A stretch of DNA of 64,000 bases from positions 256,124 to 320,123 of the forward strand of contig JBHLLT010000001.1 in the NCBI GenBank assembly GCA_048938855.1. Reading direction: 5' to 3'. Position numbers and translations under genes: made by a program. This document shows positions 14,933 through 22,199 of this stretch, in pieces. The stretch is from Promethearchaeota archaeon. GTDB lineage: Archaea; Asgardarchaeota; Lokiarchaeia; Sigyniarchaeales; SOKP01. The stretch's first letter is position 1; each line of letters opens with the position of its first letter. The notes beneath the pieces were generated by a model that made no database searches, was not told where the DNA came from, and saw only the letters and a program-made list of their open reading frames with translations.

Positions 14933-15325
14933 TTATTCAAAACTAAATTCTTGAATTAAGTTAGCAATATGCTCCTTAAATTCTTCTTTTATTAATGTGT
15001 AATATGTATATTTTCCTTTTTTCCATCCTCGAATTAATCCCACTTTTTCTAATTCTCTCAGATGATGTGAAATTGAAGGTTGAGATTTGTCTAAAATTGC
15101 TTCTAATTCACATACACACCTTTCTTTATTCATCAAGGCGGTCAAAATAACTAAACGTTCTTTATTACTTAATGCATTAAAAAATTCTAATAAAGAGTTT
15201 AACATATCATTAAATTTTAAATCTTTTCCAATTTTTTGTAGATTTTTGAAGTAAGCATCACCATCAGTACAATCATCGCATCCGCATAATGTATCTTTTA
15301 TTTTCGCTTTTCGATCGACTTTCAA
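14933..15325 (-). CDS. ArsR/SmtB metal(loid)-sensing repressor
   Basis: FNALSNKERLVI, RCVCELE (alpha3 Cys site), SQPSISHHLREL; extra N-terminal CGCDDC. Confidence 0.92.
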   Translation of the reverse strand: MKVDRKAKIKDTLCGCDDCTDGDAYFKNLQKIGKDLKFNDMLNSLLEFFNALSNKERLVILTALMNKERCVCELEAILDKSQPSISHHLRELEKVGLIRGWKKGKYTYYTLIKEEFKEHIANLIQEFSFE

Positions 15326-15409
15326 TTGAGTATCACATTATATTTATATTCTTACTATTATATAACGCATGAAATTATAAAAATTTTATCTATATTTATA
15401 ATTCTAGAT

Positions 15410-15433
15410 TCACATCGAAATATTTTTATATGA
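15410..15433. promoter_or_regulatory. Imperfect 12-12 inverted repeat overlapping a TATA-like box; candidate ArsR operator
   Basis: TCACATCGAAAT|ATTTTTATATGA, 9 of 12 pairs complementary. Contains TTTATA (15425-15430) preceded by CGAAA, between divergent arsR and the hgcA-like operon. Confidence 0.45.
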
Positions 15434-15514
15434 TACATTCTATTAATATTTCAAGTGCTGTAAAATCAAAATTAAGTTGTTATTAGGGGATGGTTACTCA
15501 TAGCAGTAGTATAC

Positions 15515-17161
15515 ATGCGAAAACTAGAAGAAGAACCAGAAACTTATGATTCTAAATTTACTGTATTAACAAAAGGAGTGAATCTTGAGGTACAAGACTG
15601 GATTTTAGATCGAATTAATGGCTCTGAATCAATATTAGAAATTGGATGTGGCACAGGTACTCTAGCAACAAAAATGGCGCAAAAAGGAAATAACGTAATT
15701 GCAATTGATAAAAACTTTCAAATGATTAATTATGCGATGAAAAATTTTCCCTCAGATTTATCTGGCGGAAAACTATTATATCAGACGGGTTCGTTTACAG
15801 ATTTAGCCACACCCCCTCGCTCTCAAGATTTAATCGTAAGTAAATTTATGTTATCTGAATTACGCCCTTTAGAACAGCAAATTTTTCTTAGAAATGTATG
15901 GAAAATGCTGAAACCCAAAGGGCGTTTAATTGTAGCTGCCGAATTTGTACCTACTGGCTTTTGGAAGATTTCATTTAAATTGAAAAGATGGCGATATAAG
16001 AAAAAATTAAGACGTTTACGAATTCAAAGCACGCATCTAGTTAAATGGTTTTATAAGTATCTAGAACCAATAGGTTATAAAATCAGTACTCTTGTAAAAT
16101 GGAAACATGGGTCAATTCAAGCCATAGAACTACAAAAGATTAATGACAATGGAACCAATGAACCTGGATATTATAGACCTAAAATTAAAAGATTTTCTGG
16201 ATTCCGATCTCAATTAAGAATTTATCGTTGTATTTTCACAGGACAAGTTGATAGGGTACCTATAGAACCCGGCATTTATAAATCTGGAAATCCTGATGAA
16301 AAATCACCGATAATTGTCACTGCAAATTATGAATTTACGTATATTAAAGTTATGCGTGATCTTAAAGGTCTAGACGCATGGGTATTATGTGTTGATTCAA
16401 ACGGTATAAATGTATGGTGTGCTGCTCGTGGTAACGATTTTGGAAACAATCAACTTATTGAAGCAGTAGAAGCTACAGGGATCAGAAATATTACTCAAAA
16501 GAAAACATTAATATTACCCCAACTTTCAGCAGGGGGTATTGCAATACCTCAACTTCCCAAAAATTCAGAGGAATTTCCTTTTAGAGTTAGATATGGACCA
16601 GTTTGGTCTAAATCAATTCCTCAATTCCTTGAAGAAAATCCTGCTAAAAAGCCTGATAGAATGAAACTAGCTCGATTTACACCTTACTATAGAATTCGTG
16701 CTGGAGTTACTCATATCTCATTTTTATTCCGAAAAATCTTCATCCTACCTTTAATTGCATTAGTTCTTCTGTTCTTAATCCTGACTTGGTTTAATAAATT
16801 ATGGTGGGTTGGTGAATTATCACTCTGGATAATTATCGCAAATTTAATTTTTGTATTATTTTTTCCAATCTCAGGTTTTACGAGGAGATTTATTATAAAG
16901 GGTATTTTTTTCGGGATAATTAATGTAATTCTCTTGGGAGGATTGGCTTATTTGATCCATAACAATATATATTACGTTCTCTGGCAGTTAGGTTTTTATT
17001 TTTGGGTGACTTATTTCTCAGTAATGTCATTTAGTGGGTACACAATGGCCACAAGCCCTAGAGAAATCCAAGAAGAATATCCCATTTTTAATTTAACGAA
17101 TAAAATTTTAATTATCCTAAGTATAGTCCTTCTGACTTTAGGATTTTTTTTTACAACATAA
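15515..17161 (+). CDS. hgcA: Class I SAM-dependent methyltransferase fused to an HgcA-like corrinoid-binding membrane protein
   Basis: N-terminal ILEIGCGTG (SAM motif I) and LKPKGRLIV. Central IEPGIYKSGNP..SPIIVTANY..., GINVWCAARG (16409-16432 encodes NVWCAARG), LILPQLSA.G, YGPV. C-terminal TM helices followed by FSGYTMATSP. Symbol denotes homology; function unproven. Confidence 0.85.
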   Translation: MRKLEEEPETYDSKFTVLTKGVNLEVQDWILDRINGSESILEIGCGTGTLATKMAQKGNNVIAIDKNFQMINYAMKNFPSDLSGGKLLYQTGSFTDLATPPRSQDLIVSKFMLSELRPLEQQIFLRNVWKMLKPKGRLIVAAEFVPTGFWKISFKLKRWRYKKKLRRLRIQSTHLVKWFYKYLEPIGYKISTLVKWKHGSIQAIELQKINDNGTNEPGYYRPKIKRFSGFRSQLRIYRCIFTGQVDRVPIEPGIYKSGNPDEKSPIIVTANYEFTYIKVMRDLKGLDAWVLCVDSNGINVWCAARGNDFGNNQLIEAVEATGIRNITQKKTLILPQLSAGGIAIPQLPKNSEEFPFRVRYGPVWSKSIPQFLEENPAKKPDRMKLARFTPYYRIRAGVTHISFLFRKIFILPLIALVLLFLILTWFNKLWWVGELSLWIIIANLIFVLFFPISGFTRRFIIKGIFFGIINVILLGGLAYLIHNNIYYVLWQLGFYFWVTYFSVMSFSGYTMATSPREIQEEYPIFNLTNKILIILSIVLLTLGFFFTT

Positions 17162-17205
17162 ATTTAAAAAAAATGAAAGATGTATAAAAATAGGAGGTAA
17201 GTAAA

Positions 17206-17568
17206 ATGACAGAAACTAATCTTGAATCATTAAATTTTTCTGAATTTATTAAAGATGTCTTAATTTTTATTGATAAAGACGTATGTAATGGTTGTGGGCT
17301 TTGTGCAGAATTATGTCCGTTCGGACTTCCACAAGCTAATAGTTCAGGAAAATATGAGATAAGTAGACCGGAATTATGTACAGAATGTAGTGCCTGTAAG
17401 AGAAATTGTCCAGTTCAAGCAATTATCTTGAATGAACGTAAAGGATGTGGATGTCTTTGGAACGCCCGAGGAGTAGCAAAGAATAAGAAAAAGGGCATCA
17501 CAGTTGAAAATTCATGTGGATGCGGACCAACTAACGAGAACAGCGTAAATAACAGTTGTTGTGGATAA
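17206..17568 (+). CDS. hgcB: HgcB-like 2x[4Fe-4S] ferredoxin
   Basis: CNGCGLCAELCP and CTECSACKRNCP, then GCGC and a C-terminal SCGCG...SCCG tail. AGGAGG RBS; directly downstream of the hgcA-like gene. Confidence 0.85.
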   Translation: MTETNLESLNFSEFIKDVLIFIDKDVCNGCGLCAELCPFGLPQANSSGKYEISRPELCTECSACKRNCPVQAIILNERKGCGCLWNARGVAKNKKKGITVENSCGCGPTNENSVNNSCCG

Positions 17569-18523
17569 GTTGGATATAAATTCTAAAAAAGGCTTATTTT
17601 TTGGAACCATAACAGTTTTCTTAGTGGGACTGCAACCTGTAATTGCGAATTCAAGGCCCGAAATTATAGATGCATTTATTTTTGCTGCAATTACAGCTTT
17701 AATCGAAGCCGTAGTTTTCCTTCCATTATATTATCTTGAAAGAAGAAAATTAAGTTCAAATCAAGAAATTGACACAAATAAGTCTTTATTGAATGGCTGG
17801 AAAAAAAAAGATAATATAAAATTGCTTGTGTTGATTGGATTATCTTTTGCAATTATTCCAATTTTATTATATATTGGTTATGAAATTACAGGGTCAACAA
17901 ATAGTACCATAATCTTAAAATCTGAAATCATTTTTGGTTTATTATTTGGTTTTTTAATATTAAATGAAAAAGTCACTAAAATTCAAGTTATTTTTTGCTT
18001 AATTTTATTTATTGGATTGTTTTTCACAGTTACTAAAGGATTTACTAACATAAATGAATTGAATATAGGAGTGTTGGTTTTAATCATAAGTGTGGCTTCA
18101 TTTACTTTTATTCATTCTTTAACTAAAGTCAAATTTGATAAAAATGAATTATTTCCTACTCAAATTGTATTTATTAGAAATTTACTAAGTGGATTATTGC
18201 TATTAGTGCTCTATATTATCTTTTTCCCTATAAAGAACCTTCAAATAGTCTTTAATCCTAATTATTTTTTGTATTTTTTATTTATGGGTTTGGATTATGG
18301 ATTTAGTCTATACTTTTGGTATAAAACATTAACCTTCATCCAGATTGGCACTGCTACGATAATTAATTCTCTAACTCCATTCTCCACAGCATTCTTCGCT
18401 TTTATTATTCGCGGCGATCCTTTCACTTTATTTCATCTTATTGGTGTAATTATCATAATAATTTCTATTATTGTAATTGTAAGAGAAAAAGAGAATAAAA
18501 AAGAATTGGAGGTTCAAAATTAG
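17561..18523 (+). CDS. EamA/DMT-family transporter
   Basis: About 10 TM helices in two repeats (ILNEKVT..Q; IIRGDPFT). GTG start overlaps the hgcB stop by 8 nt. Confidence 0.88.
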   Translation: MDKLDINSKKGLFFGTITVFLVGLQPVIANSRPEIIDAFIFAAITALIEAVVFLPLYYLERRKLSSNQEIDTNKSLLNGWKKKDNIKLLVLIGLSFAIIPILLYIGYEITGSTNSTIILKSEIIFGLLFGFLILNEKVTKIQVIFCLILFIGLFFTVTKGFTNINELNIGVLVLIISVASFTFIHSLTKVKFDKNELFPTQIVFIRNLLSGLLLLVLYIIFFPIKNLQIVFNPNYFLYFLFMGLDYGFSLYFWYKTLTFIQIGTATIINSLTPFSTAFFAFIIRGDPFTLFHLIGVIIIIISIIVIVREKENKKELEVQN

Positions 18524-18620: not shown

Positions 18621-19199
18621 ATGAAAAAAAGTAAAATTATTCCAAAAGCATATTTATTTCCAATGCCAGTTGCCCTTATTGGGGCAAATGTAAATGGGAA
18701 GCCAAACTTTGAGACACTTGCGTATGTTGGTATTGTAGAAGCTAATCCTCCAATGATTTCAATAGCTTCTTGGGAAACTCATTATACTAACATCGGGATC
18801 AATCAAAATCGAACTTTTAGTGTTAATACACCAACCGAAACTATAGCAGAATTAGTGGATTATTGTGGTATTGTTTCAGGAAAAGAAGAAGATAAGTCAG
18901 AAGTATTTGAAGTTTTTTATGGGGATCTCAAAACCGCTCCCATGGTAAGCCGTTCACCGTTAAATCTTGAATGTGAGGTTATAAAGACTTTTAAGATCAC
19001 AGAATTAGTAGATATCGAGAAAGGGCATGAAATCTTTATCGGAAAAATAGTAAATGTCTATGCAGATGAGGATATTTTAACAGAAGGGATACCTGATATT
19101 GCTAAGTTGAAAACTTACTTGTATTCAATAAACAACTATTGGAAAATTGGCAAAAAATTAGCATCAGCTTTCGAAATAGGTAAAAATTATAAAAAATGA
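18621..19199 (+). CDS. Flavin reductase / flavoredoxin family protein
   Basis: FPMPVALIGANVNGKPNF, DYCGIVSG, TAPMV...LNLECEV, HEIFIG. Confidence 0.9.
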   Translation: MKKSKIIPKAYLFPMPVALIGANVNGKPNFETLAYVGIVEANPPMISIASWETHYTNIGINQNRTFSVNTPTETIAELVDYCGIVSGKEEDKSEVFEVFYGDLKTAPMVSRSPLNLECEVIKTFKITELVDIEKGHEIFIGKIVNVYADEDILTEGIPDIAKLKTYLYSINNYWKIGKKLASAFEIGKNYKK

Positions 19200-19227
19200 A
19201 GTAAAAACCAAATTGCTTTTGATTAAA

Positions 19228-19794
19228 ATGAGTATTAAAAAATTAAATAAACATGTTATTGAAGGGAATCTACTCAGTCCACTCTCCGTGATTTTGGTGG
19301 GCGCAAATGTTAATAAAAAACCGAATTATCTGGTAATTGGATATAGTTGCCCATTTGATTTTGGTAAATATATTTTCTTCAGCTTATATCCAAAACGTTA
19401 TACTGCAATCGGTATTCATGAGAATATGACATTCAGTGTAAATATTCCTTCGGAAGATCTCGTGGAAAAAGCTAATATTTGTGGAAGTAAATCTGGACGA
19501 GATATTGATAAAAGTGCTCTCTTTGATAATTTTTACGGAGAATTAAAAACAGCGCCTATGATTCGTGAATGTCCAGTAAATATAGAATGTAAAGTACATG
19601 AAATCCTCGACTATGGTGATGGTGAAGGAATTATCGGTAAAGTAATTAAATCTTATGTAGATCAACAATACACTGTGGAAGAAGCAGGAAAAGTGAAACT
19701 TGATTGGAGAAAGATCCACCCGATTATTTGGACCACTGGAGGAGATTTTAATTATTATAAATTAGGAGAACGAATTCTTGTTAAAGAAAATTAA
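19228..19794 (+). CDS. Flavin reductase / flavoredoxin family protein (tandem paralog)
   Basis: GANVNKKPNY, CGSKSGR, KTAPMIRECPVNIECKV. ATG 19228 preferred over TTG 19213. Confidence 0.88.
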   Translation: MSIKKLNKHVIEGNLLSPLSVILVGANVNKKPNYLVIGYSCPFDFGKYIFFSLYPKRYTAIGIHENMTFSVNIPSEDLVEKANICGSKSGRDIDKSALFDNFYGELKTAPMIRECPVNIECKVHEILDYGDGEGIIGKVIKSYVDQQYTVEEAGKVKLDWRKIHPIIWTTGGDFNYYKLGERILVKEN

Positions 19795-21980: not shown

Positions 21981-22199
21981 TTACTTGTATTTAATTGACA
22001 GGAGAAGGTCGTTCTTTGTTATTTTCTTCCTATTTGCATGCATTGTAAAGGTTCTTGCTTGTTCAGTTAAAGCACTTGCAGTTTTTTCTAAATGATCAAT
22101 TAATAAGTCAACTGCATTTCGAGCTACAATGCTAGCGCCCTGTTGCTTCATCAATCGGCGAATTGGGCTCCATGCGAAAGAATGTTTCTTTTTAGCCAT
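21981..22199 (-). CDS. Archaeal histone (HMf-like histone fold)
   Basis: SPIRRLMK..GA..V...A....HANRKKITKNDL; GGAGG RBS upstream. Confidence 0.92.
   Translation of the reverse strand: MAKKKHSFAWSPIRRLMKQQGASIVARNAVDLLIDHLEKTASALTEQARTFTMHANRKKITKNDLLLSIKYK

Follow-up and report, generated by a model that had tools for sequence, protein, structure and literature searches.

A methyltransferase fused to an HgcA-like corrinoid protein, behind a candidate arsenic-type operator, in a genome of the Lokiarchaeia

What might an archaeon do with a protein that joins a methyltransferase using S-adenosylmethionine (SAM) to a relative of HgcA, the corrinoid protein of mercury methylation, beside a regulator of the arsenic type? 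The question is raised by a 64,000-nucleotide (nt) stretch from a Promethearchaeota archaeon of the Lokiarchaeia (assembly GCA_048938855.1, contig JBHLLT010000001.1, positions 256,124 to 320,123), referred to here as the window. The initial annotation had described four genes in it, and all four open reading frames (ORFs) were found where it placed them: an ArsR/SmtB repressor gene at 14933-15325 (-), facing a methyltransferase-HgcA-like fusion of 548 amino acids (aa) as called, in an uninterrupted frame at 15515-17161 (+); an HgcB-like 2[4Fe-4S] ferredoxin at 17206-17568 (+); and an EamA/DMT transporter at 17561-18523 (+), whose start overlaps the end of the ferredoxin ORF by 8 nt. The reading favored here, to which we give a probability of roughly one half, is that the fusion is a membrane-bound, cobamide-dependent methyltransferase belonging to a non-canonical, CpaM-associated branch of HgcAB and expressed in an arsenic (ArsR) regulon.

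The fusion is no assembly artefact or chance read-through, a possibility that the initial annotation had left standing, since full-length fusions recur in many independent assemblies and 52 related loci were recovered from genomes of other species. Of 440 homologs, the best 120 bear names mostly from Promethearchaeota bins and are nearly all full-length fusions, with 64-91% identity and 90-100% coverage. Alignment of contigs to the fusion adds little, since none of the listed pieces spanned the entire junction between the domains, and says nothing about expression or about the probable ATA start codon discussed below. When 301 genomes of the phylum were scanned, frames of 550-610 aa with the fusion domain turned up in several families; the fusion and its ferredoxin are conserved in Loki-, Thor-, Hod- and Heimdallarchaeia, with more distant fusions in Hodarchaeales, Heimdall- and Ranarchaeia, Anaerolineae and Abyssubacteria bins. 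The survey of synteny that the annotation had proposed placed the ferredoxin directly 3' of the fusion at 40 of the 44 loci with enough sequence, where it must be kept in mind that the 52 loci come mostly from one family, in genomes that are kin, and that these counts are not of independent events. The fusion was not found in the closed 4.4-Mb genome of a sister family; weak, stop-interrupted matches to both of its ends in a sister-family genome (G089, contig C14, 39095-39743) are possibly a decayed copy.

The annotated order of domains within the fusion is borne out both by domain search (Pfam Methyltransf_25 at aa 40-136, CdhD at aa 235-339) and by an AlphaFold2 model with a mean predicted local distance difference test (pLDDT) score of 79.8, in which a Rossmann methyltransferase comes first, then an alpha/beta domain and then the five long helices. 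The class I methyltransferase domain (aa 1-207, 15515-16135) is best matched by the CpaM model NF043040, at 137 bits under a cut-off of 180, and a CpaM cluster is among its top Atlas matches. It carries the motif I sequence ILEIGCGTG at 15632-15658, and residues G46, G48, D65 and E143 are invariant among 74 diverse fusions. The HgcA/CFeSP-type corrinoid-binding domain (PF03599, 16196-16690) is 37% identical to an above-cut-off HgcA; its W301 and C302 are invariant in the same 74 of 74, and its cap helix, NVWCAARG (16409-16432), in all 52 motif-bearing fusions, with Cys302 (16418-16420) as the putative cobalt ligand. This domain very probably binds a cobamide. The transmembrane (TM) bundle occupies aa 390-547 (16682-17161), where hydropathy gives four strong peaks as against the five long helices of the model. 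The top PDB match of the model is a computational model of HgcAB (9a0b), followed by class I methyltransferases; the cap helix was modelled without cofactor and at low confidence, and a prediction of the methyltransferase domain in complex with the corrinoid domain and SAM scored 0.02 and is not used as evidence.

The ferredoxin (Fer4 x2) reaches 49 bits against NF040864, with a cut-off of 99. The features by which HgcB is defined (PMC7305189), namely two CxxCxxCxxxCP motifs, Cys73 and a C-terminal Cys, are all present in it or have their equivalent. The region of Cys73 aligns with a GCGC sequence that holds one extra Cys. Among the orthologs the two Fe-S motifs are kept in 41 of 42, GCGC in 42 of 42 and the C-terminal Cys pair in 41 of 42. 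Both this HgcB-like protein and the divergent Cys-rich ArsR stand as annotated.

In several respects the locus resembles HgcA and HgcB (NF040863 and NF040864; Pseudodesulfovibrio mercurii ND132): it has a corrinoid domain of CFeSP (corrinoid iron-sulfur protein) type with a cap-helix Cys equivalent to Cys93, a TM bundle, a downstream 2[4Fe-4S] ferredoxin with the Cys73 equivalent and terminal Cys pair, and ArsR control with ars neighbors. The fusion is nevertheless no canonical HgcA, failing on motif, on score and on clade. It has the extra N-terminal class I methyltransferase; its cap helix reads AARG rather than the AAGK of the motif NVWCAAGK, and passes the looser survey filter N(V/I)WCA(A/G); it scores 172 bits against NF040863 (HgcA_corrinoid), where the cut-off is 275; and the ferredoxin, likewise under its cut-off, has GCGC in place of the GVGC of HgcB. 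In trees of the corrinoid domain (154 columns, with CdhE on a very long branch, giving neither the root nor the order of fusion events), the canonical HgcA-type sequences, with AAGK and no methyltransferase, form one clade (SH-aLRT, the Shimodaira-Hasegawa-like approximate likelihood ratio test, 98 in one tree; 100/100 in the other). All methyltransferase-fused sequences fall outside it, the window protein lying, in the latter tree, inside a Lokiarchaeia clade (100/99). The deeper branching, between the Asgard group and the fused-AB group, is weakly supported (89/76). The placement agrees with that of Lin et al. 2023 (PMC10083202), in which Thor- and Lokiarchaeota sequences grouped with the fused-HgcAB subtree; a term search of that paper found no mention of a methyltransferase domain or of ars context for the Asgard sequences. 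Proteins above the HgcA cut-off occur in one of the 301 Asgard genomes. This sole example, accompanied by a canonical HgcB (L056 732-2092, genome G025), lies on a short contig of a bin that is 9% contaminated and is put down to transfer or mis-binning.

The fusion is instead a rearranged form of a pair, CpaM plus HgcAB-like, whose split form is already catalogued in NCBIfam. Such a split pair is found in the same genome on contig C46, at 256 and 363 bits and above the NCBIfam cut-offs (its cap helix, at L001 6341-8121, reads NVWCGACG), and some Hodarchaeales fusions carry the NCBI name CpaM. Pair and fusion share the SAM methyltransferase, corrinoid/TM and ferredoxin modules and both lie outside canonical HgcA, but the point of fusion has moved: in the window the methyltransferase is fused, under ars control, and the ferredoxin is free, with a Cys-rich tail, whereas NF043039 (HgcAB_like) requires a ferredoxin fused to the corrinoid/TM protein. 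The window fusion lies under both cut-offs (137/180 for NF043040 and 179/285 bits for NF043039). Three arrangements of the modules were seen, which are methyltransferase::A plus B, as in the window, a methyltransferase::A::B triple fusion, and split CpaM plus A::B; in every one the methyltransferase is tied to the non-canonical branch.

The repressor scores 77.9 bits against NF033788 (cut-off 55; HTH_5) and has the alpha3 CxC site expected of an As(III)-sensing ArsR. Among its orthologs the CVC of this site (C70/C72) is kept in 35 of 35, and the N-terminal CxCxxC in 33 of 35 for C14/C16 and 28 of 35 for C19. The third alpha3 Cys of the R773 ArsR is Glu in the window protein, and the N-terminal Cys may substitute for it. 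A second ArsR, 51% identical, is encoded next to acr3 on another contig of this genome, C49. An operator matrix trained solely on arsR-acr3-type promoters of other genomes was scanned over 3.95 Mb, and its top two matches genome-wide are a 24-bp imperfect palindrome, TCA.AT-N12-AT.TGA, at 15410-15433 (27.7; no strand assigned), a candidate ArsR operator, and the arsR-acr3 promoter of C49 (25.3); the best match in 10 shuffled genomes was 23.2. A scan for bacterial promoters and terminators gave a chance-level result.

Among the 52 loci, Acr3 is found at 32 (at 30 of them immediately upstream), ArsR at 33, an ArsC-like protein at 5 and EamA at 1. The commonest order is arsR, an optional DUF166 gene, acr3, fusion, ferredoxin, a small thioredoxin-like protein (a lead only) and another small gene. 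In the sub-lineage of the window arsR faces the fusion directly, and since C49 keeps arsR-acr3 and two small genes without the fusion, the operon has come apart into two pieces. (The C49 remnant, at L003 6575-9160, includes these two small Asgard genes, one of which, of 93 aa, shows a CACxC-like motif and, in the Atlas, weak thioredoxin-like matches of 0.88-0.89.) In another sub-lineage, within the same genus, loci without ArsR often have upstream the gene of a Cys-rich MarR, which shares 57% identity with the MarR found ahead of arsM elsewhere; at loci of this MarR type (as at L111 5096-5932) a gelsolin-domain protein is convergent to the ferredoxin. In Thorarchaeia a CVC-bearing ArsR lies upstream at 6 of 10 loci, and a true arsM lies within the fusion run in two genomes; at L053 and L138 acr3 and the fusion are parted by an inserted ArsM-like gene. 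Canonical hgcAB is itself often found among ars genes (PMC7438021), and that of ND132 is As-induced via an ArsR (10.1101/2022.10.17.512643). Of the unit proposed in the initial annotation, to sense, methylate and export Hg, As or another soft metal(loid), the ArsR regulator stands and the link to arsenic is stronger than was claimed, while export by EamA falls. Synteny rules out EamA as a dedicated exporter, since it occurs at 1 of 52 related loci; it is Acr3 that is the conserved transporter, and this genome keeps it on another contig.

In the favored reading a thiophilic metalloid, likeliest As(III), would bind the ArsR cysteines and free the 24-bp operator. The two [4Fe-4S] clusters of the ferredoxin would then reduce the corrinoid to Co(I), by analogy with HgcB, and the fused CpaM-like domain would bind SAM and methylate Co(I), whose lower ligand would be Cys302. 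The GCGC and terminal CC of the ferredoxin might hold a thiol-bound metalloid, which would receive the methyl group, and export would fall to carriers encoded outside the unit, Acr3 or others. In the history of the lineage, arsR, operator, fusion and ferredoxin would have separated from acr3 and its companions, which stayed on C49, preceded there by a second arsR that has the same operator.

Methyl transfer from SAM to Co(I) by the fused domain is somewhat more likely than not. Purified HgcAB binds SAM with a dissociation constant (KD) of 33 uM and is methylated by it directly, on Co(I) with Co-S ligation and without any such domain (PMC11588087). This weakens the Rosetta-stone argument of the initial annotation, in which the fusion was a clue to the methyl donor of canonical HgcAB. 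What the fusion tells us accordingly concerns the CpaM-associated branch and not, directly, canonical HgcAB. This type of methyltransferase domain travels with the non-canonical lineage and not with the canonical clade.

The arsenic-type operator and the protein's own methyl-donor domain make it more likely that it handles arsenic than mercury. An arsenic species is, tentatively and at somewhat less than even odds, the methyl acceptor; another soft metal(loid) is a poor candidate. Trace methylation of Hg as a side reaction, which is not the likely job, is possible though we would not expect it, and Hg as physiological substrate is doubtful. The methyltransferase domain shares with ArsM (NF008823) the class I SAM fold and an arsenic-operon context, but has one Cys as against eight in the ArsM of its own genome, and its score is 25 bits where 263 is the cut-off. 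It was rejected as an ArsM, so that any methylation of As would have to run through the corrinoid. The true ArsM of the genome scores 341 bits against the same cut-off, which also rules out the fusion as a replacement for it there; 24 of 71 genomes of the family have ArsM. Ahead of this arsM (L151 1450-3504, contig C50) lie the gene of a second methyltransferase and a small gene rich in Cys codons, and no copy of the ArsR operator was found at its locus among the top matrix matches. A wider proposal, which we hold to be unlikely, is that the enzyme makes or breaks C-As bonds with self-loaded SAM, unrelated to ArsM, that this was the original job of the HgcAB lineage, and that Hg methylation came later, as a sideline of the branch without the SAM domain.

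Several points weigh against the favored reading. What is proposed for this branch comes from sequence and context, and the 52 loci that supply much of the context are, as said, mostly of one family. No arsenic genes were found at 8 of 8 Hodarchaeales-type loci, nor at the bacterial fusions and the split pairs examined. Plain methylation of As(III) would be redundant in a genome with a true ArsM, and the extra domain may do something else, since canonical HgcAB needs none to take a methyl group from SAM. Finally, ND132, with canonical HgcAB, made no detectable methylarsenicals.

The occurrence of the fusion together with ArsM, and not in its place, would also fit a step acting on methylarsenicals, in which the corrinoid works reductively, in C-As or C-metal cleavage or in dehalogenation, and the SAM domain merely reactivates Co(II), as does the activation domain of methionine synthase. 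Reactivation of B12 enzymes by SAM is well established. A preprint describes dechlorination of halomethanes catalysed by HgcAB (10.64898/2026.04.26.720869). We consider the reductive reading quite improbable all the same, since the ferredoxin, with its low-potential clusters, could restore the reduced cobalt without SAM and no conserved methyl-acceptor enzyme lies nearby. A functional mercury methylase, that is, an HgcAB of Asgard archaea that carries its own SAM domain and makes methylmercury as canonical HgcAB does, is a still weaker candidate. The Cys93 and Cys73 equivalents, the TM domain and the terminal Cys pair are all in place, where the ferredoxins of fused HgcAB end without a tail, and the ars neighborhood is one that canonical hgcAB often shares. 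Against this are the scores of both proteins, the AARG motif, the position outside the canonical clade and the rarity of above-cut-off HgcA in Asgard genomes noted above. Moreover Pyrococcus furiosus and M. methylutens, the two organisms with non-canonical fused hgcAB that were tested, do not methylate Hg (PMC5893877, PMC10083202); that negative carries over without certainty, because their proteins are without the Cys-rich ferredoxin tail kept here. A search of the genome for MerB gave no match anywhere and is uninformative. It is just as hard to credit as a mercury methylase that the enzyme acts on an organic compound of the membrane, be it a lipid, a quinone or a xenobiotic, and that the arsenic neighborhood is a secondary recruitment in Lokiarchaeia, given three separate Cys-rich regulator contexts, an operator in common with acr3 and the conserved Cys-rich tail of the ferredoxin, although the methyltransferase domain is similar to UbiE and to phospholipid N-methyltransferases, its helix at aa 150-175, basic and aromatic, might rest on the membrane, and many lineages have no metal genes nearby.

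It is still being asked what HgcAB does natively, and no substrate is known for its non-canonical branch. With a SAM domain and a corrinoid in one chain, behind an arsenic-type operator in Lokiarchaeia, substrate, inducer and methyl path become testable with two genes. For surveys it matters that loose motif filters class these sediment archaea as mercury methylators, though their protein falls outside the one clade for which Hg methylation has been shown. The methyltransferase fusion, its arsenic operator and the CpaM name were not found in the literature examined, which did not include Zhang et al. 2023 (ISME J), where Lokiarchaeota are said to be proposed as Hg methylators. Asgard hgcA homologs (PMC10083202) and the linkage of hgcAB to ars genes (PMC7438021; 10.1101/2022.10.17.512643) are already published; the window adds the split operon with its common operator, the link from MarR to arsM, a pattern of non-AUG starts and the incidental nature of EamA.

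As to these starts, translation of the fusion probably begins 15 nt upstream of the called ORF, at an ATA codon (15500-15502, +), which would give 553 aa, because homologs begin MAVVYMRK, for which the frame here has IAVVYMRK, and because the equivalent codon is start-like at 50 of 50 loci (ATG 34, ATC 9, TTG 3, ATA 3, GTG 1). ATC or ATA stands in this position at 12 of the 50, besides the ATA of the window, with the downstream AV[VT][YF]M residues kept. The pattern suggests routine non-AUG initiation, perhaps with low expression as its purpose.

Downstream, the EamA gene (PF00892) is a lineage-specific insertion and no conserved part of the module: in the nearest relatives the ferredoxin runs straight into flavin-reductase-like genes, with no EamA between. 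Two such genes (PF01613) lie in the window at 18621-19794 (+). The family is present at 9 of 56 loci, the window included, and lies downstream only in the window's sub-lineage. Farther along, a 72-aa ORF at 21981-22199 (-) has, by eye, the look of an archaeal histone.

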